A stretch of 64,000 nt of DNA from Congzhengia sp. (GTDB taxonomy: Bacteria; Bacillota; Clostridia; UBA1381; UBA9506). How positions within the stretch are numbered: position 1 is the stretch's first letter; every line of letters begins with the position of its first letter. This document shows, piece after piece, positions 20,633 to 42,925 of the stretch. Under the pieces are notes generated by a model, which was given only the letters and a program-made list of their open reading frames with translations, searched no databases and was not told the origin of the DNA. The position numbers and the translations under genes were made by a program. Location of the stretch: NCBI GenBank assembly GCA_045591015.1, contig JAZNSC010000008.1, positions 28,546 through 92,545 of the forward strand, written 5' to 3'.

Positions 20633-20839
20633 ATACGGGATTTTATTTCATAAAATCCCTAAAAGCCTAATGGCTTTTTGTGGTCTTGCGACCACTGTGT
20701 CAATTGACGGCGTCGTAAAAATGCCCTTGCAAGCAAGCATTTTTACTCCTGGTAGAATTTGCCTAGCATCTAAACCATTGGTGTAAGACATCAAAACACT
20801 TCAGTCTTTACATAATATTTAAAATAAAGGACAAAATTT
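20633..20839 (+). promoter_or_regulatory. structured ~205-nt 5' leader of trkAH (candidate riboswitch/attenuator, class unresolved)
   Basis: Four stem-loops: 10-bp GGGATTTTAT/ATAAAATCCC (20637..20659); AAAAGCC/GGCTTTT plus T-run (20661..20679); GTGGT/ACCAC (20680..20695); AAAAATGC/GCATTTTT (20717..20744). Confidence 0.4.
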
Positions 20840-37483: not shown

Positions 37484-38500
37484 ATGGGTAACTATATTGA
37501 AAAAATCGGCGATTCTATTAGCAGAGCAGAGAAAAAAATAAGCGAAATCAGAAAACAAGATTCTCTTGTTTTTTCAATATTCACGGATTTACATACAGTA
37601 GATGCAGAGCATGAATATATGGATAGACTGATTTATGCATTAAAGCTTATCACAGATAAAATTGAATATGATGCAGTTATTGATCTTGGGGATAATTTTG
37701 CAATGTTAGGCAGAGATTTGCACATATCAAATGAAGAGTTGAGGGCACGTTTTAAAAGGATATTTTCTGCAATATACTCTGCAACAAATCATCCCATAAT
37801 AAATGTGAACGGGAATCACGATGCAATCGGAACAGATTTTTTTAAGGCTGATTTCTGGAATGATATAGTAAAAGGCAAATATGGGAATACTTCAGCAGTT
37901 TACGGCGATAGCGGTAGTTATTATTATGTAGACTATGAAAAGGCAAACACAAGACTTGTCATTCTTTCGCTTCCTTATGATTCAGACATTGAAAGCGAGA
38001 TGCCAACGCCGCTGTGGAAATTTGGAAAATGTCAGCTTGACTGGCTTAAGAATAGTGCGCTTAGCACAACAAAAGATGTTATTATTCTTTCTCACGTACC
38101 TTTTTATTATAGATATACAGGCAACAAAGAGGAAACACTTCCAGTGTGGGATGGTAAAAATAGTAAAAAGTCATACATCGCAGCACTTTGCGGTGAAATT
38201 GGAGATTTGGATGAAGCAATATCAATAGTAAATGAGTATTATAACAGAGATAACACAAGACTTGTTGCATGCCTTAGTGGGCATACTCACGAAGATTCAT
38301 TGCGGCTACCTGGTGAGCAAAAAGACGAGTATAAAAATCCGCTACCTTGTTGCCAAATTGTAACTGAATCCACAGTATTATTTAATGGGAATGACCGAGA
38401 AATAGGGTTAAGCCTTGATATAGCAGTGTGGAATCCGTCGGAAGGAAAGCTTTATATGATTCGTGTTGGTGATGGTGAAGATAGGGATATATCCGTTTAA
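37484..38500 (+). CDS. metallophosphoesterase-family protein
   Basis: Calcineurin-like motifs 'FTDLH', 'LGDNF', 'NGNHD', 'SGHTHED'. Confidence 0.75.
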   Translation: MGNYIEKIGDSISRAEKKISEIRKQDSLVFSIFTDLHTVDAEHEYMDRLIYALKLITDKIEYDAVIDLGDNFAMLGRDLHISNEELRARFKRIFSAIYSATNHPIINVNGNHDAIGTDFFKADFWNDIVKGKYGNTSAVYGDSGSYYYVDYEKANTRLVILSLPYDSDIESEMPTPLWKFGKCQLDWLKNSALSTTKDVIILSHVPFYYRYTGNKEETLPVWDGKNSKKSYIAALCGEIGDLDEAISIVNEYYNRDNTRLVACLSGHTHEDSLRLPGEQKDEYKNPLPCCQIVTESTVLFNGNDREIGLSLDIAVWNPSEGKLYMIRVGDGEDRDISV

Positions 38501-38547
38501 AATTCATAGGATATGGCATGAAACAAATGATCATACGGCTTAAGTTT

Positions 38548-38572
38548 GCATCTAAACCCTACATCCCTTGTA
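38548..38572 (+). repeat. left copy of 25-nt direct repeat GCATCTAAACCCTACATCCCTTGTA
   Basis: 22/25 identical to 38761..38785. The two copies bracket the hairpin/8-mer array. Confidence 0.8.
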
Positions 38573-38573
38573 T

Positions 38574-38750
38574 GCGGTCTGTAAGACCGCAATGAATTGC
38601 CTTGCGGCATAAATTGAAATCTTGCGATTTCATGAATTGAGCCTAACGGCTCATGAATTGTGCTAACGCACATTAAAGGCAATTCAATTCATGATGTGAA
38701 ACATCAATTCATGGCGGAGCCAATTCATGACAACAAAGTTGTCAATTCAT
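38574..38750. repeat. mirrored array: (hairpin + ATGAATTG) x4-5, then (CAATTCAT + hairpin) x4
   Basis: ATGAATTG at 38592, 38632 and 38653, with degenerate copies at 38609 and 38672. The reverse complement CAATTCAT is at 38685, 38705, 38721 and 38743. Interleaved stems: GCGGTC/GACCGC, GAAATC/GATTTC, GAGCC/GGCTC, GTGC/GCAC, GATG/CATC, GGC/GCC, GACAAC/GTTGTC. Confidence 0.85.
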
Positions 38751-38760
38751 TTGTAGCTTG

Positions 38761-38785
38761 GCATCTAAACTCTACATCACTTATA
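38761..38785 (+). repeat. right copy of 25-nt direct repeat GCATCTAAACTCTACATCACTTATA
   Basis: See the left copy at 38548..38572. Confidence 0.8.
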
Positions 38786-38827
38786 AAAAAGATGTCGAAA
38801 AATATCGAAAGGAGAAAATGTGGTGAG

Positions 38828-38854
38828 AATTGCAATAAATTGCGTGAAAATTGC
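38828..38854 (+). promoter_or_regulatory. three phased AATTGC boxes (10- and 11-nt spacing), the last overlapping the -35
   Basis: AATTGC at 38828, 38838 and 38849. Confidence 0.5.
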
Positions 38855-38882
38855 AAGAATATATATATATATATATTATAAT
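38851..38882 (+). promoter_or_regulatory. candidate promoter of the multi-CBM esterase gene with an (AT)9 tract in the spacer
   Basis: TTGCAA 38851..38856, (AT)9 38859..38876, TATAAT 38877..38882 (20-nt spacer). An alternative -10, TATTAT, lies at 17-nt spacing. Confidence 0.5.
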
Positions 38883-38926
38883 ATTAGCGGGGATATTATA
38901 AAACAATGATGAAAGTAGGTAAACTT

Positions 38927-41900
38927 ATGAAAAAAATCTTATCGATAGTAATGTGCGTAGCTTTACTTATGAGTGTTATGTTTGTGATTCCTGTAAGTGC
39001 AGCAGCAACAAGCGACACATACTATATGAACGATTTTGAAAACGGAAGGGAAAACATCAGCAGTTGGTCAGACCACAACAGAGTGACTCTGGCTGCAGGC
39101 GGTGCATACGGTTCAAAGTATGCAGGTCGTGTAGTTGCAGATGACTACAACTACGGCTCTGACATTTTAAAGTATGGTGCAGGAACTGCGCAAAGATTTG
39201 AAGCACATTCCGGAGAAATCTTCGAGGCTTCTATGCTTATGAAGCTAGAAACACCTCAGGCGGCAGATAGTGCCGGTCAATGTATGCTTATTCTCTGGAC
39301 GGACGGTACAATTTCAGGTACCGCTACATACAAAATTATAATAAGCAGTTTTGATAAAACTTCAACAGACTGGCAGAGAGTAAACTTCAAATACATCTTC
39401 ACACAGGATGTGCTTGATGACCCTGCAACAACAAGTAAATTCGAAGGCATCAAAAAAGTAGAAATCCGTATGAATGGTGGTGTATCAAACAAAGCAGCAG
39501 ATGGTACAACAAAGTGTTCTTACCTGATTGATGACCTTGAAATGTACATCAAAAAAAATGACGGCAGAATCAAATACACCACAAGTTTTGAAACGAGTGA
39601 CACATTGGCTGTCCTTTCTTCAGGCGGAAAATACACCGCGCAGAAAGTAACAACAGAAGCTCATACAGGTGCCCAGTCTACATTAGTTACAGTAAATAAC
39701 GAAGCAGGTATGTATGCTTACAAAGCAGACATCAGAAACAATGGTGCCAACATCACAGTACCTGTAGAAAAAGGTACAGAAATTACAGTTACCGCATATA
39801 TCAAACTCCATCAGGCATTTAAATCTTCATCTTCAGGTACTTTTGCCGTTATGTCTTATTTCAACAAGGCAGTTGATTTAGATGGCGATGGAAATGCTAC
39901 AAACGGCTACAGATTCTTTACCGGAAAAATAGCCGACGTAACAAATACAACCGACTGGCAGAAAATTACCGCATCTTATACATGGCCCATAGATACTGTG
40001 GCTGAACTTAATTCATGGGAATTGCGTCTTGCAGACGACAATATCTTACCTGACGGCACAAGCAGCGCTCCCGGCGAGAGAAAATTCTATGTAGACGACC
40101 TTACAATAGAAACAAAATATGTAAACCCTAACGCTTGTAAATTCAGCAGTGAAGCAGGCGAGACTAATTACATAGGTACAGGCACAAACTACAATGTAGC
40201 AACAGTGAATACTACAAGCCGCACAGGCGAAAAATCTGCACTTGTTACAGTAGCAAATAAATCCGGAATGTATAATTACGAAGCGCTTTTGAGAAAAAGC
40301 GGCGGTGCAAACCTGAACATTGCAGTAGCAAATGGTGATACTCTCACAATTTCGGCATATATCAAACTCTATCAGGCGTTTGATGCATCATCTTCAGGCA
40401 CATTTGGATTTTTGTCATACATCAGCCCTGCTGTTGACTTTGACGGTGACGGCAATGCTGCAAACGGATATAGAATCTTTACTGCAAGTATTGCAGATGT
40501 AACAAATACAACTGACTGGCAGAAGATCTCTGTTACATTCCCGTGGTCATATGGAAGCACTACATTGACACAGTGGGGATTGCGTCTTGCAGATGCCAAC
40601 ATCTTACCCGGTTGTACAACAAGTGCTCCCGGTGAGAGAAAATTCTATGTTGATGACTTAAAGATAGAAATAACAAATGCAAACACCAAACCCACACCAC
40701 CTGAACTTTCAGATGTTAAAGAATCAGGTACATTCAAACTTGGTGAGCAAGTGGGAGTTCAGTATGATTTTGAGGCGTCAGGCGGAGCAACAGACCAATC
40801 TGTAATCAAACTTATGTCAGGAAGTGTAGGCAAGAGTGCGTGTATTGCGACACTTAATCCCGGTGGTACAATTACAGTAACATCCGATATGCTTGGTAAA
40901 GAGTACTACTGGGAAATTCTTCCCATTGCCTCAAACGGACTCTATGGCGATAAAGTAATACTTTATGCTACCAAACCTGAATTCGGTGACTTTAAGATTT
41001 ATAACTTTGAAGATGAAGACACACTCGACATCGAAGGTGCAACAATATCAGAAAATGGTTACCTCGGTACAAACGGTCTTGCTGTTAGTTCTGATTCTAT
41101 AACATTTGCAACGACATTAGACCCTGATTTTGCATACAGCATTTCAGCCAAGGTAAAAGCATCAGACACACCTGTTGCAACCTTTGCAATGAGTGATTCA
41201 AATACTTTCAATGATGTTGATATGACTGTTACACAGCTTGAAAACAGCTGGTACAAATTAACTCTTGATAACTATAATTTCAACACAGCAAACAATACAA
41301 ACTACGGTGCAAACCAACTTGGTGTAAAAGCAAAAATCACGTTTGGTGCGACAGATAACTACATTTTAGACGATATCGTTATCAAGCCTTACGAAATGGA
41401 AGTAAGCTCTGACGATTCTGTTGTTCTTCCTGCCAACGGTAAAATTTTTGACACAGTAAATGCTACTGTTAATACAACATCAGATAATGTATACTACATT
41501 TTTGAAGTTGCAGAAAACGGCACAGACTGGGCAATTACAGACTTTGGCATCACATCAGGTAAGACAATACCTTACTATATGGACGATGATGCGGCAGGCA
41601 AAAACTTGCGCGTTACAGTTTACACAAGCGGTGCAACATATCAGTATGCGGTGTCAAATGTGTTACAGGAAACCACAACCGATCTGGTAGCATCTGAAAT
41701 AAAAGTTACAAACTCATCAGGAAAAGAAGTAGAGGATGTAAAATCCGGCATACTTACAACAACAGTATCGGTTTATAATCCTTATGACGAAGCAAAGACT
41801 GTAACACTTTACAATGCAGTATATACCACTGTGCCCGTAAAACTTGCTGTTCTTCAGCCTAAGGAAGTAACTGTAGCAAAGGGCACAACCGTTATAACTG

Positions 41901-42925
41901 ATACAGTTGACCTGACAGATGTTTCTCACTACTCACAGTACACACATTGCCTGAAGACTTTTGTTTGGAACGAGTATATTCCGATTGGTCCGTCAAAGGA
42001 AACAGCGGCATGCGAACTCATTGATGGTGCAGTTTACAATATGTATATCGACGAAAGCATCGAAACCGTTGAAGGTATCGTAATGATGAACCAACACGGC
42101 GAATCGGGAAGTTACGCTACAAATGCTAAATTCCGTCAGTTCTGTAAAGAGAGAAACCTTGCAATATTTGACTTCTATGACGGGGCTGCAGGAAATCTCA
42201 AATACTGGCACAATGAAGATTTTGCGATGGAAGTATTAAATACAAAAATCGCAGAAATAGCATACAAAACAGGTCACCCCGAACTCAACTATGTTCCTAT
42301 AGCAACACTCGGTCACTCAAACGGTTGTGTAGCGGCAGGCAGAATAGCAAAACTCAACCCCGAAAGAACATTCGCAGTACTTTGCTTTAAATCTGCTTAT
42401 CCCTATCAGTTTGAATTTGATGAGTTGGTAGAAGCAAAAGTTCCGGTATTTATAATCACAGGCGAAACAGACTGGGATTGGGGTTATCACGGACAGATTC
42501 ACGCAGCAGAAAGAATAGTTAAAGCCGGCGGTGTGGCAACATATGTACAGCAGAAAAATGCAGGTCACGGCAATATGACCACAGCAGAAGATATTATGCT
42601 TGCATTCTTAGATGAAGCTTATAAAGCAAAGGTTAAAAATGCAACTGTGGTAAATGGTGTAACAGTAATGCCTGAAATTGATCTTGAAAGCGGCTACATA
42701 GGTTACGGCACATATACAGAAACAGTAGAACCCAAGTGGAACTATGATGCAAATGGATATGTAGACGAAACTGTTTATGTATACGAAAATCCCACGTACA
42801 TCCCTTATGCAGAGGCTCAGGAAATAATCAAAAACGACAGTAGTTTCCTTGCTCAGTCATGGCTCTTCAATGAAGACTTTGCTAAAAAATGGGTAAACTT
42901 CATAAATAAAGGCACAATTAACTAA
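38927..42925 (+). CDS. large secreted protein: three CBM4_9/CBM22-like modules, Ig-like middle region, C-terminal alpha/beta-hydrolase (esterase) domain
   Basis: Signal peptide 'MKKILSIVMCVALLMSVMFVIPVSAAA' from ATG 38927 (ORF open from 38906). CBM-like modules end in 'YLIDDLEMY', 'FYVDDLTIE' and 'FYVDDLKIE'. Nucleophile elbow 'GHSNG' is encoded at 42311..42325. Confidence 0.8.
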   Translation: MKKILSIVMCVALLMSVMFVIPVSAAATSDTYYMNDFENGRENISSWSDHNRVTLAAGGAYGSKYAGRVVADDYNYGSDILKYGAGTAQRFEAHSGEIFEASMLMKLETPQAADSAGQCMLILWTDGTISGTATYKIIISSFDKTSTDWQRVNFKYIFTQDVLDDPATTSKFEGIKKVEIRMNGGVSNKAADGTTKCSYLIDDLEMYIKKNDGRIKYTTSFETSDTLAVLSSGGKYTAQKVTTEAHTGAQSTLVTVNNEAGMYAYKADIRNNGANITVPVEKGTEITVTAYIKLHQAFKSSSSGTFAVMSYFNKAVDLDGDGNATNGYRFFTGKIADVTNTTDWQKITASYTWPIDTVAELNSWELRLADDNILPDGTSSAPGERKFYVDDLTIETKYVNPNACKFSSEAGETNYIGTGTNYNVATVNTTSRTGEKSALVTVANKSGMYNYEALLRKSGGANLNIAVANGDTLTISAYIKLYQAFDASSSGTFGFLSYISPAVDFDGDGNAANGYRIFTASIADVTNTTDWQKISVTFPWSYGSTTLTQWGLRLADANILPGCTTSAPGERKFYVDDLKIEITNANTKPTPPELSDVKESGTFKLGEQVGVQYDFEASGGATDQSVIKLMSGSVGKSACIATLNPGGTITVTSDMLGKEYYWEILPIASNGLYGDKVILYATKPEFGDFKIYNFEDEDTLDIEGATISENGYLGTNGLAVSSDSITFATTLDPDFAYSISAKVKASDTPVATFAMSDSNTFNDVDMTVTQLENSWYKLTLDNYNFNTANNTNYGANQLGVKAKITFGATDNYILDDIVIKPYEMEVSSDDSVVLPANGKIFDTVNATVNTTSDNVYYIFEVAENGTDWAITDFGITSGKTIPYYMDDDAAGKNLRVTVYTSGATYQYAVSNVLQETTTDLVASEIKVTNSSGKEVEDVKSGILTTTVSVYNPYDEAKTVTLYNAVYTTVPVKLAVLQPKEVTVAKGTTVITDTVDLTDVSHYSQYTHCLKTFVWNEYIPIGPSKETAACELIDGAVYNMYIDESIETVEGIVMMNQHGESGSYATNAKFRQFCKERNLAIFDFYDGAAGNLKYWHNEDFAMEVLNTKIAEIAYKTGHPELNYVPIATLGHSNGCVAAGRIAKLNPERTFAVLCFKSAYPYQFEFDELVEAKVPVFIITGETDWDWGYHGQIHAAERIVKAGGVATYVQQKNAGHGNMTTAEDIMLAFLDEAYKAKVKNATVVNGVTVMPEIDLESGYIGYGTYTETVEPKWNYDANGYVDETVYVYENPTYIPYAEAQEIIKNDSSFLAQSWLFNEDFAKKWVNFINKGTIN
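39575..40669 (+). repeat. in-frame tandem duplication of a ~179-aa CBM-like module (39575..40111 and 40136..40669)
   Basis: The modules align end to end, e.g. 'IADVTNTTDWQKI', 'LRLAD.NILP', 'TSAPGERKFYVDDL', 'YIKL.QAF..SSSGTF'. Confidence 0.85.

Follow-up and report, generated by a model that had tools for sequence, protein, structure and literature searches.

Between a metallophosphoesterase gene and a 1339-aa open reading frame (ORF), the window (the whole 64 kb stretch of clostridial DNA that was analysed) carries a block in which an 8-nt motif alternates with small hairpins, at first in one orientation and then in the other. The question it raises is whether the block is a structured RNA, an operator in duplex DNA, a mobile repeat or a signal of some other kind. 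The answer developed here is that it is a gene-less ("solo") member of a family of dyad-symmetric linker/mini-hairpin arrays found in Clostridia of gut and rumen as well as on viral contigs. In its full form the array is the usual module upstream of stand-alone IVP genes (Avd-like four-helix bundle). Loop statistics and promoter predictions suggest that the array may work as folded DNA rather than RNA.

Layout of the block and its flanking boxes

All the linkers and hairpins are at the positions given by an earlier reading of the sequence on its own (the sequence-only reading). The left module (38592–38672), built like the array that Rfam Gut-1 represents for the GUGAAAU clade, has exact ATGAATTG at 38592, 38632 and 38653 on the + strand and ATAAATTG at 38609. 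Its hairpins are hp1 (38598–38609), hp2 (38615–38632), hp3 (38638–38653) and hp4 (38659–38672), the loops of which read GCAA, GCAA, GTTA and GTTA on the − strand. In the right module (38685–38750) the linker is the complement, CAATTCAT, at 38685, 38705, 38721 and 38743, and the loops of hp5 (38692–38706), hp6 (38712–38722) and hp7 (38728–38744) read GAA, GGA and AAA on the + strand. A longer flanking hairpin, P0 (GCGGTC-TGTAA-GACCGC, 38574–38590), also folds. In all, the linkers alternate with eight different perfect hairpins, and the eight stems pair as had been claimed. ATTAAAGG is present at 38672, but it is not the degenerate linker it was taken for: the overlapping AAGGCAATTCA (38676–38686) is a perfect 11-nt complement of TGAATTGCCTT (38593–38603), which comprises linker 1 and the 5′ arm of hp1. 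These are the two strands of a long-range helix, P1, the 3′ strand being within the asymmetric centre ATTAAAGGCAATT(CA) at 38672–38686. The centre also holds a partial extra linker (CAATT) before R1.

Exact ATGAATTG/CAATTCAT occurs 11 times in the window, against 4.3 expected and with no shuffle attaining 11, and 7 of these copies are inside 160 nt of the block, with a start-to-start spacing of 13–23 bp. The stems take their T-A and G-C closing pairs from the linkers, so that every hairpin has the form 5′-TG...CA-3′, which leaves 5 nt of each linker single-stranded, TGAAT or ATTCA.

The direct repeat that flanks the array is real (28 nt, 86% identity; 38545–38572 and 38758–38785), and the 25-nt pattern by which it was noticed has only these two copies in the window. 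It is not a bracketing part of the element, as was first proposed, but a promoter-like box, which is also present at 20766 and in loci without arrays. Copy 1, TTTGCATCTAAACCCTACATCCCTTGTA, on the + strand, has a degenerate −10-like part that stops one base short of P0; the corresponding place in relatives is taken by an extended −10 (TGnTATAAT). Copy 2, TTGGCATCTAAACTCTACATCACTTATA followed by AAA and likewise on the + strand, is the likely promoter of the 1339-aa ORF (38906–42925, with a signal-peptide-like start at 38928), for which there was no Pfam match. In L062 the same box precedes an array and P0 that are near-identical, and it precedes an ordinary gene there too. Related boxes ending TATAAT are found in L065, L015, L120 and L226 and at 20766 in the window, and boxes homologous to copy 2 are downstream of the arrays in L065, L015, L099 and L092. 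This recurrence rules out the repeat as a target-site duplication. Because the genes downstream of the arrays are unrelated (LOG-like, TIM-barrel, LysR, pyrH, IVP and secreted proteins), the block was also rejected as a riboswitch, or a leader or regulator specific to the secreted protein downstream.

A dispersed family and its link to IVP genes

A pattern of three spaced CAATTCAT linkers was fitted by at least 120 loci, mostly in MAGs of gut and rumen Clostridia, with roughly 1–2 chance loci expected on a rough, uncomputed estimate. Nine MAGs are represented by two loci each among the matches listed. (Matches outside Clostridia, in Terriglobia, Planctomycetota, Bacteroidota and giant-virus contigs, were plain tandem repeats and were discarded.) Hairpin-type arrays are present in 86 of 222 loci, including the viral contigs L134, L201 and L203, and many copies show the same >>>><<<< layout. 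The module of the family consists of three or four short palindromes of differing sequence (5′-TG...CA-3′, 4–8 bp stem, 3–4 nt loop) joined by one invariant linker of 7–9 nt. Two modules face each other, so the left linkers are the reverse complement of the right ones. The oppositely oriented half-sites of the sequence-only reading thus stand as inverted modules, recast as polar units each made of a linker plus a hairpin.

Dispersed copies, by which a REP- or MITE-like selfish repeat was to be recognised, do occur in related genomes. Near-identical arrays are at the non-orthologous loci L099, before a LysR gene, and L092, before pyrH, and tandem and duplicated copies are found in L101 and L055. 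The window has a single array. BLASTN of the block against phage and plasmid collections gave no match, a literature search on the 8-mers gave nothing but miRNA and primer noise, and homologues of the upstream metallophosphoesterase are at most 69% identical, have other genes beside them and adjoin only short intergenic regions.

Only one family, PF05635, recurs in the 150 ORFs that flank arrays. An IVP gene adjoins or nests in the array in L120, L040, L042, L226 and L037, in the last of which its ORF occupies the array centre. An upstream array, counted as at least three chained linkers plus at least two reverse-complement copies directly upstream, is present in 64 of the 72 stand-alone IVP (PF05635/TIGR02436) loci with sufficient upstream DNA. 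These 64 represent 37 distinct arrays with at least 8 linker pairs, and the linker type follows the IVP clade. One cassette locus, of the GTGATAT type, recurs across many assemblies from the human gut (L258–L291). The cassettes are directly after a tRNA or tmRNA gene in 26 of 48 cases, and none of the 25 families most often seen in the 57 IVP-flanking ORFs is a reverse transcriptase or transposase. The window copy has the mirrored modules, complementary linkers, P0 and left-end/centre P1 of the arrays upstream of IVP cassettes, and its layout and several of its stems match the IVP-linked copy in L120. As there is no IVP homologue among the window ORFs and none directly downstream, it is a solo copy. 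Co-location and co-variation suggest that IVP may bind the array, though shared descent could produce both. The literature searched yielded no function for the abundant PF05635 "23S rRNA intervening-sequence proteins". (PDB entry 2RLD, itself uncharacterised, is homologous to IVP.)

That the diversity of the hairpins reflects selection on structure, as first suggested, is borne out by comparison. Compensatory changes are seen at 16 of 38 predicted pairs in a 19-element alignment, all 16 in local hairpins. Paralogues within one MAG keep their stems at almost every position while every loop differs, and an orthologous pair is ~97% identical in the array and ~85% in the adjacent gene. Where linker sequence differs between lineages, complementarity of left and right linkers is retained as a block. 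Position-specific stems are common to the window, L015, L065, L106, L120, L099 and L092, and a hairpin of 7–12 bp is ahead of the left array, in the position of P0, in all relatives. (In other linker clades, P0 is bidirectional-terminator-like.)

Gut-1 and the choice between RNA and DNA

The sequence-only reading recognised no known ncRNA family in the block. For the window copy this holds: Gut-1 (RF01706) has no match in the window at the gathering threshold (Rfam scan, 50-bit curated cut-off), none in 38300–39000 even at E ≤ 10, and none in the other CAATTCAT-type loci scanned (L015, L065, L106, L099, L092, L120 and L042). For the family it does not, as Gut-1, an orphan motif in Rfam, is the GUGAAAU-type half of the element, one half-array with a sister linker. 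RF01706 matches 16 of 23 cassettes with non-CAATTCAT linkers, coinciding exactly with the left array (+ strand) and, on the opposite strand, with the right one. The Gut-1 consensus is CAaUGAAAU-hp-GUGAAAU-hp-GUGAAAU-hp-GUGAAAU, and the window's ATGAATTG-hp, repeated four times with covarying stems, fits this layout of invariant RTGA-type linkers. Gut-1 and the family share at least three short covarying hairpins, an identical 7–8 nt linker beginning RTGA and an origin in uncultured gut Clostridia. They differ in the linker (AUGAAUUG in the window, GUGAAAU in Gut-1), and Gut-1 in Rfam is one half-array only whereas the family has a mirrored second module. In the part of the source available, Gut-1 is described only from human-gut sequences, without function or gene context (Weinberg et al. 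2010, PMC2864571). Rfam and these authors class it as an sRNA, and Rfam curators rated it certainly an RNA (PMC2864571). As far as was found, the mirrored module, P1, the IVP gene, tRNA proximity, solo dispersal and loop polarity are undescribed.

The RNA fold of the block is far better than that of shuffles (z = −6.0 for the + strand and −4.8 for the − strand). P1, pairing 38593–38603 with 38676–38686, is used by the MFE structure and is mutually exclusive with hp1. This type of long-range helix is conserved across linker families: pairing of left end and centre, by other sequences, extends to at least 10 nt in 32 of 38 distinct elements (shuffle mean 5.2 nt). An equivalent centre, in the order complement of the hp1 arm, 5 nt of linker, first right linker, is seen in the GTGAAAT, GTGATAT, GTGAAGT and ATGATG families. 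The sequence-only reading had envisaged left linkers pairing with right linkers in an RNA ladder of stacked four-way junctions. Of three explicit models the ladder is the least stable, both with RNA parameters (ladder −40.6, local hairpins −51.6, P1 plus hairpins −61.1 kcal/mol) and with DNA parameters (−24.9, −36.2 and −39.3 kcal/mol, respectively). Half-arrays without a complementary partner are common, and the polarity of the loops reverses between the two halves, both of which also tell against it. (Kissing of left UNC with right GNA loops, examined by eye in the window and L259, was discarded as the loops have no mutual complementarity.)

On the strand where the linker reads CAATTCAT, the loops are c-GNA-g or c-GNNA-g, and so the favoured strand differs between the halves. 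Loops of the G..A type number 58 and of the T..C type 4 on CAATTCAT-strand units, the corresponding numbers on ATGAATTG-strand units being 0 and 49 (Fisher p = 3e-27). Read in the direction of the IVP gene, the loops are 31 T..C and 2 G..A in left arrays, and 46 G..A and 4 T..C in right arrays. Triloops outnumber tetraloops, 135 to 82, and the G..A tetraloops listed divide into 19 GNRA and 21 GNYA. Both c-GNA-g and c-GNNA-g are extraordinarily stable DNA mini-hairpin loops (PMC13037366, PMC3201870). Sixteen c-GN(N)A-g mini-hairpins with a stem of at least 4 bp occur in the window, five of them in the block, four on the − strand in its left half and one on the + strand in its right half. In each half the G(N)NA strand is the more stable as ssDNA, the − strand in the left module (−20.4 versus −17.6 kcal/mol) and, slightly, the + strand in the right module (−12.1 versus −11.2 kcal/mol). 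G-T and A-C account for 11 of 787 stem pairs (1.4%), without strand bias; excess of G-U over A-C as an indicator of the transcribed strand was uninformative (19 versus 29, then 8 versus 3). Of 37 cassettes, 21 have an extended −10 after the array and before the IVP start, and 2 have one upstream of the array. Taken together, loop polarity, the rarity of wobble pairs and promoters downstream of most arrays favour folding as DNA.

Some features point the other way. The CAATTCAT-clade array is probably transcribed, with an extended −10 one base before P0 in L015, L065, L106, L120, L099 and L115, and a ribosome-binding site for the next gene 10–45 nt after the last linker in L106, L120 and L058. 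Further, P1 spans 70–90 nt, a distance that fits pairing within a free strand of RNA or ssDNA better than extrusion from a duplex, and in linkers of the GTG type the T-G closing pair forms a wobble on the TGA strand alone. One rival, which we consider possible though rather unlikely, is a structured ncRNA: an extended Gut-1-type sRNA or 5′ leader, transcribed across both halves from a P0-side promoter, that would fold into P1 plus hairpins, or the ladder, and serve as a protein sponge, a processing/stability element or a type-III-antitoxin-like partner of IVP. The covariation of hairpins and of P1, the complementarity of left and right linkers in every family, the fold z-scores, the promoter and ribosome-binding site that enclose the array in CAATTCAT-clade loci, its location between two genes of an operon in L040 and L228, and the sRNA class given to Gut-1 by Rfam and Weinberg et al. 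speak for it. However, because polarity reverses between the halves, no single transcript carries all the favoured loops. These loops, GNA or GNNA with no purine preference at position 3, are not of the RNA-stable GNRA/UNCG type, and wobbles are few. In most IVP cassettes the array is preceded by a terminator-like P0 and followed by the promoter, solo half-arrays show no clear orientation bias to co-directional genes (10 versus 6, with a crude ORF caller), and the ladder is 11–20 kcal/mol worse than its alternatives.

Proposed mechanism and known systems

The explanation preferred, to which we give about an even chance, is that the block is a solo copy of the IVP-linked family with polar units that fold as DNA and linkers that are recognised by an IVP-like factor. 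The working unit would be polar, a 5′ linker and then a hairpin with a G(N)NA loop, and it would fold not within one RNA but in DNA, either single-stranded or extruded, with the two halves using opposite strands. The identical linkers would be recognised by a lineage-specific factor, for which the IVP of the cassette itself is the best candidate. In that case the array would serve as a cis site controlling or propagating a small, transposase-less IVP cassette, and solo copies such as that in the window would be IVP-less derivatives, analogous to REPINs. Between its two promoter-like boxes, the window array would at most modulate transcription into the 1339-aa secreted-protein gene. A bolder proposal, speculative and unlikely as it stands, is that array and IVP together are an unrecognised minimal element, a ~0.6 kb cassette without transposase or reverse transcriptase. 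Its cis site would be the dyad array of strand-polar ssDNA mini-hairpins with their recognition linker, an Avd-like four-helix-bundle oligomer would read that site, and the cassette would take up positions after tRNA or terminator hairpins and give rise to solo arrays in genomes and phages alike.

REP, BIME and REPIN sequences resemble the family in being short, intergenic, hairpin-forming repeats, in mosaic arrays of alternating or inverted units with inverted doublets, and in enrichment at the 3′ ends of genes. REP/RAYT recognition of ssDNA is strand-polar, to which the polarity of the arrays can be likened. That the arrays are themselves a selfish repeat of this kind, recognised and moved by a host HUH (RAYT/IS200-type) or other enzyme with one gene elsewhere in the genome, and with IVP as a frequent passenger or neighbour, is nevertheless improbable. 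It would account for multi-copy, intergenic dispersal, including the near-identical arrays in L099 and L092 and the tandem or duplicated ones in L101 and L055, for the REPIN-like inverted doublets, and for polar hairpins, which suit ssDNA-acting enzymes. Half-arrays are also depleted between divergent genes (2 of 30, with 12 convergent; a weak pattern from a crude ORF caller), and the arrays often have further REP-like hairpins close by. However, what is conserved is the reverse of REP: the family keeps its linker while its palindromes all differ, as do the eight stems in the window, where the linker alone is conserved. The family has no GTAG-type head, no RAYT was found among the 207 flanking ORFs, and it is tied to a four-helix-bundle gene. 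A passenger would not be expected to have a near-obligatory array with clade-specific linkers upstream of it, orthologous copies are more constrained than the adjacent gene, and no target-site duplication was found, the flanking repeat being a promoter box. No Y1/HUH or other transposase is among the 25 most frequent families of either the 150 or the 57 flanking ORFs, which is weak evidence as such a gene would be single-copy.

Very improbable is a duplex-DNA operator in which a di- or multimeric transcription factor on CAATTCAT/ATGAATTG palindrome halves regulates a neighbouring promoter and the hairpins are incidental, since, though linkers are invariant in both orientations, persist in half-arrays that lack the pairing partner, and arrays adjoin promoters, the varying linker spacing would put sites on different helix faces, the spacers are always palindromes with compensatory changes and strand-polar loops, neither of which a duplex operator needs, and P1 covaries.

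Other known elements were set aside. For a MITE, the only flanking direct repeat is the 28-nt, 86% promoter-like box without target-site duplication, and the best terminal inverted repeat of the block is 18 nt at 78%. For integron attC, the block has no GTTRRRY core sites, and none of the 25 families most often seen in the 150 array-flanking ORFs is an integrase. Type III toxin-antitoxin and CRISPR were rejected on defining features. (L095 alone shows a cassette-like series.)

Closer to the preferred reading, RSF1010 has two ssi signals on opposite strands. In ssDNA priming sites and N4 promoters, c-GNA-g/c-GNNA-g loops on short stems act as ssDNA signals, as proposed for the family, though such mini-hairpins are single and at replication origins or phage promoters, whereas the arrays are chromosomal and dispersed, with no sign of an origin (PMC13037366). 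The target of DGRs includes a DNA hairpin beside avd in which stem sequence is free and a 5′-GRNA loop on the sense strand matters (Guo et al. 2011, PMC3240598). Like the arrays it is directly upstream of an Avd-family gene, IVP being an Avd homologue (PF05635). However, the DGR has one GC-rich hairpin of 7–10 bp and the family 7–8 small hairpins with GNA/GNNA loops, and the reverse transcriptase, template and variable repeats of a DGR are not near the arrays: no RVT family is among the 25 most frequent of the 57 IVP-flanking and 150 array-flanking ORFs. The 23S rRNA intervening sequences with an S23p/IVP ORF, as in Coxiella, are small, selfish-looking units in which strongly pairing sequence bounds or surrounds the IVP ORF (PMC4990558) and, like IVP cassettes, are associated with stable-RNA genes. 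They have a simple stem, whereas IVP cassettes are outside rRNA and bounded by a linker/hairpin array.

Gut-1 has been in Rfam since 2010 without organism, context or function, and its link to PF05635 gives each a testable partner. The family is far larger than the Rfam model, with at least 8 linker types of which most are invisible to it. It is built of two mirrored modules, and its solo copies spread among gut Clostridia and their phages. If the DNA reading is true, these would be natural arrays of extraordinarily stable DNA mini-hairpins serving as a genomic signal, and a caution for RNA-motif annotation. If the minimal-element proposal is also true, it would explain the origin of the IVP-bearing 23S rRNA intervening sequences, and "Gut-1 RNA" would be reassigned as a DNA element.

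The array block and its dispersed relatives

The mirrored array at 38501-38790 lies within a 405-nt gap, with a metallophosphoesterase ORF (37484-38500, + strand) on one side and a 1339-aa ORF (38906-42925, + strand) on the other; the latter has a signal-peptide-like start (MKKILSIVMCVALLMSVMFVIPVSAAA) and no Pfam domain at E <= 1e-3. Its exact linkers, at 38592, 38632 and 38653 (ATGAATTG, left module) and at 38685, 38705, 38721 and 38743 (CAATTCAT, right module), are 7 of the 11 exact copies in the whole window, for which 4.3 are expected. Seven perfect hairpins, all different, alternate with them, and an eighth, the longer P0, is just upstream (38574-38590). The motif copies and hairpins described in the sequence-only reading are confirmed; the interpretation placed on them is partly supported. 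On re-parsing, each hairpin is 5'-TG[stem]loop[stem']CA-3', with TGAAT (left) or ATTCA (right) as unpaired linker, and the window fold is far beyond that of shuffles (z = -6.0 and -4.8). Between the element and the 1339-aa ORF (38816-38885), two direct 21-nt repeats in tandem (AAATGTGGTGAGAATTGCAAT / AAATTGCGTGAAAATTGCAAG) precede a (TA)n tract; this stretch could serve that gene as a regulatory site or as a phase-variable tract.

The 25-nt direct repeat flanking the block exists (25-28 nt) but is not part of the element: a lineage-specific promoter-like box, which recurs upstream of ordinary genes, is present here twice. The layout, (T)GGCATCTAAA, 12-14 nt (often TCGTTCACTGATT), then TATAAT, is shared by several related MAGs, in which it precedes unrelated genes. 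These GCATCTAAA-type boxes, ending in a -10-like hexamer, are at 38548-38572, 38761-38785 and, upstream of another ORF, 20766-20795 in the window, and 5′ of ordinary genes at loci elsewhere (L062, two copies; L065 5683; L015 2560; L120 1183; L226 5165 and 11777). Across the 25-nt repeat, one L062 box matches the first box of the window at all but one base. Recurrence of the box at 20766 and at ordinary genes elsewhere rules out a target duplication. A lineage-specific sigma factor or regulator may recognise the box.

Whether the block is single-copy or dispersed had been left as a question. When one genome per species was scanned for an exact pattern, three copies of CAATTCAT at 5-24 nt spacing, at least 120 loci matched, against the 1-2 or so expected (a rough hand estimate, not computed by a tool), and the window block is one copy of a large dispersed family. 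Among the matches listed, most are gut and rumen Clostridia MAGs (Oscillospiraceae, Acutalibacteraceae, Christensenellales, "Eubacteriales") and nine MAGs have two loci each; matches in other phyla are plain tandem repeats and were rejected as members. A >>>><<<< layout over ~160 nt is common to many Clostridia loci, single loci can carry tandem or multiple copies (L101, L055, L095, L134), and copies are also present on IMG/VR viral contigs.

In a close group (the window, L015, L065, L106, L120, L099, L092, L115 and L203) the stems cc/gg, gaaatc/gatttc, gagcc/ggctc and gacaac/gttgtc are conserved position by position, and the loops vary, even between two copies within one MAG. An alignment of 19 elements has compensatory changes in 16 of 38 predicted pairs, all 16 in local hairpins, which upholds the earlier view that hairpin diversity preserves structure; linker-linker pairs are invariant throughout. 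For the orthologous pair L053/L090, the array is ~97% identical whereas the adjacent gene is ~85% identical, and the few array differences are mostly in loops.

Long-range pairing and modular build

Pairing of left with right linkers in RNA had been proposed to yield a ladder of stacked four-way junctions. For the window this has the worst energy of three models (-40.6 kcal/mol with RNA parameters, -24.9 with DNA parameters, against -51.6 and -36.2 for local hairpins only and -61.1 and -39.3 for P1 plus hairpins) and is not favoured; to solo half-arrays it cannot apply. P1 is a long-range helix that pairs the centre with linker 1 and the 5′ arm of the hairpin that follows it; its two strands in the window, TGAATTGCCTT (38593-38603) and AAGGCAATTCA (38676-38686), are perfect complements. 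Of 38 distinct elements, 32 have a P1 of 10 nt or more (shuffle mean 5.2 nt), and since the pairing is held by very different sequences, P1 is conserved by covariation.

The arrays are built of modules and are not one single palindrome. Half-arrays (four units, one orientation) frequently stand alone, the inverse order <<<< >>>> is also found, the halves are split by a gene in L048, and the centre contains extra hairpins in L075 and a whole ORF in L037. Curated half-arrays lie between convergent (12), co-directional (16) or divergent (2) genes, and the genes flanking arrays are unrelated housekeeping genes. In L037 (852-1480) a gene for the Avd-like "23S rRNA intervening-sequence protein" (IVP) is antisense inside the array centre, and in L042 (1900-2480) an IVP gene has the right module upstream and the left module downstream; these arrangements suggest recombination at or between arrays. 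L095 (1-4000) resembles a set of gene cassettes: it has four unrelated small genes, every one of them with an extended -10 promoter of its own, separated by ATGAATTG x4 half-arrays, and behind two of these half-arrays comes a same-strand run of hairpins linked by GTGAAGTT. Other short repeats often surround arrays (L023, L069, L024, L093, L026, L059, L063): GTAGGGGC-type REP-like hairpins, CTCCC...GGGAG hairpins and 7-8 nt tandem repeats (AACTCCT, CTGACTA, CATTGCG). Composite mosaics, with the linker families ATATCGA, ATATCGC or ATATCAC, and ATGAATTG side by side in one intergenic region, occur at L118 1199-1450, L025 1421-1608, L056 2450-2591 and L163 15-1113.

Association with IVP genes

The same architecture with linkers AGCTAAATT/AATTTAGCT precedes a PF05635 "23S_rRNA_IVP" gene in L226, and IVP homologues adjoin or nest within CAATTCAT arrays in L120, L040, L042 and L037. 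A generic array finder added the linker families ATATCGA/TCGATAT, ATATCAC and GTGAAGTT. PF05635 is the sole recurrent family among 150 array-flanking ORFs, and there is no transposase among the families listed for them. A protein-first metagenome scan yielded 80 IVP loci; 72 have 260 nt or more of upstream sequence, and of these 64 have an array directly 5′ of the gene (at least three chained copies of a 6-mer plus at least two reverse-complement copies), representing 37 distinct arrays. The linked pairs include ATGAATTG/CAATTCAT, ATGAAAT/ATTTCAT, GTGAAAT/ATTTCAC, GTGATAT/ATATCAC, GTGAAGT/ACTTCAC, GTGATGT/ACATCAC and ATGATG/CATCAT (left consensus RTGAWNT), and AATTTAGCT was met there in right arrays only, its partner AGCTAAATT being known from L226. 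IVP clade and linker type go together. [Within one clade, MKENKL-type proteins accompany ...TCAT linkers and MxESKL-type ...TCAC linkers. Most left linkers start RTGA (ATG or GTG, then A), a start codon overlapping a stop codon, the exceptions being AGCTAAATT and TCGATAT.]

The protein is TIGR02436 and has a homologue in the PDB, the uncharacterised five-chain entry 2RLD; PADLOC does not include it. The loci are not DGRs, because no RVT-family match is among the families listed for neighbouring ORFs. In 26 of 48 IVP loci (including L237, L239, L245, L255-L260, L283, L286, L289 and L296, the last with tmRNA) the cassette directly follows a tRNA or tmRNA gene of the same strand; the tRNA is the last gene of a cluster, with many different isoacceptors, and the parts run tRNA, terminator-like P0, array, promoter, IVP. 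In L297 (1109-1300) two tandem c-di-GMP-I riboswitch aptamers are downstream of the cassette.

DNA or RNA, and the relation to Gut-1

The loops are strongly polar relative to the linker, being c-GNA-g or c-GNNA-g on the CAATTCAT strand (cGCAg 22, cGAAg 17, cAAAg 13, cGTAg 9, cGTAAg 9, cGCAAg 8, cGTCAg 8). G..A and T..C loops number 58 and 4 in CAATTCAT-strand units, and 0 and 49 in ATGAATTG-strand units (Fisher p = 3e-27). When cassettes of all linker types are oriented by IVP, left arrays have 31 T..C and 2 G..A and right arrays 46 G..A and 4 T..C, so the two halves carry their favoured loops on opposite strands, which counts against the array working as RNA. So does the type of loop: c-GNA-g and c-GNNA-g are classic, extraordinarily stable DNA mini-hairpin loops (PMC13037366, PMC3201870), not of RNA GNRA or UNCG type. 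Triloops outnumber tetraloops (135 vs 82), and by hand count the listed G..A tetraloops (19 GNRA, 21 GNYA) have no purine preference at position 3. In both halves of the window array, folding as ssDNA is more stable for the G(N)NA strand. Wobble-type pairs, rare (11 of 787 stem pairs) and unbiased, also speak against RNA, as does the predicted location of most arrays outside the IVP mRNA, given an extended -10 between right array and IVP start in 21 of 37 cassettes and an upstream P0 resembling a bidirectional terminator. On the side of RNA are the CAATTCAT clade, where an extended -10 is one base before P0 and the ribosome-binding site of the next gene directly after the array, the 70-90 nt span of P1, and the U-G pair at hairpin bases in the Rfam Gut-1 model. 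We lean towards DNA; action as RNA is a serious but less probable reading.

As DNA, the polar linker-plus-mini-hairpin units would fold in single-stranded or extruded form and be recognised by some lineage-specific factor, for which IVP itself is the most plausible candidate. Such a reader is proposed because all linkers in an element are identical, change in concert with IVP clade, and stay conserved in half-arrays, where they have no pairing partner. The window copy, with no IVP gene, is best seen as a solo derivative between two promoter-like boxes.

The impression that no known ncRNA family was involved stands for the window, where no Rfam family matches at gathering and none of relevance does at E <= 10, but not for its sisters with other linkers: Gut-1 (RF01706; three hairpins with GUGAAAU between) matches the left array in 16 of 23 non-CAATTCAT cassettes. 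It also matches right arrays on the opposite strand (L239 is above threshold on both arrays; the L259 right array scores 40.5 bits), and matches none of the eight CAATTCAT-type loci scanned, window included. The array family is thereby related to Gut-1. The Gut-1 passages of Weinberg et al. (PMC2864571) report it just as occurring in human-gut sequences, list 43 representatives, rate it an RNA, and give neither gene context nor function.

The window element is therefore of a known, Gut-1-like kind, itself uncharacterised; for the mirrored architecture and the IVP link no published description was found. The function suggested here is a proposal from sequence. For the putative reading of DNA hairpins the nearest precedent comes from DGR targets, where a DNA hairpin next to avd has a GRNA loop and is strand-specific (PMC3240598). 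In 23S rRNA intervening sequences IVP ORFs are embedded in pairing sequence (PMC4990558), and the combination of an IVP ORF with pairing sequence is common to these and the IVP-linked arrays.
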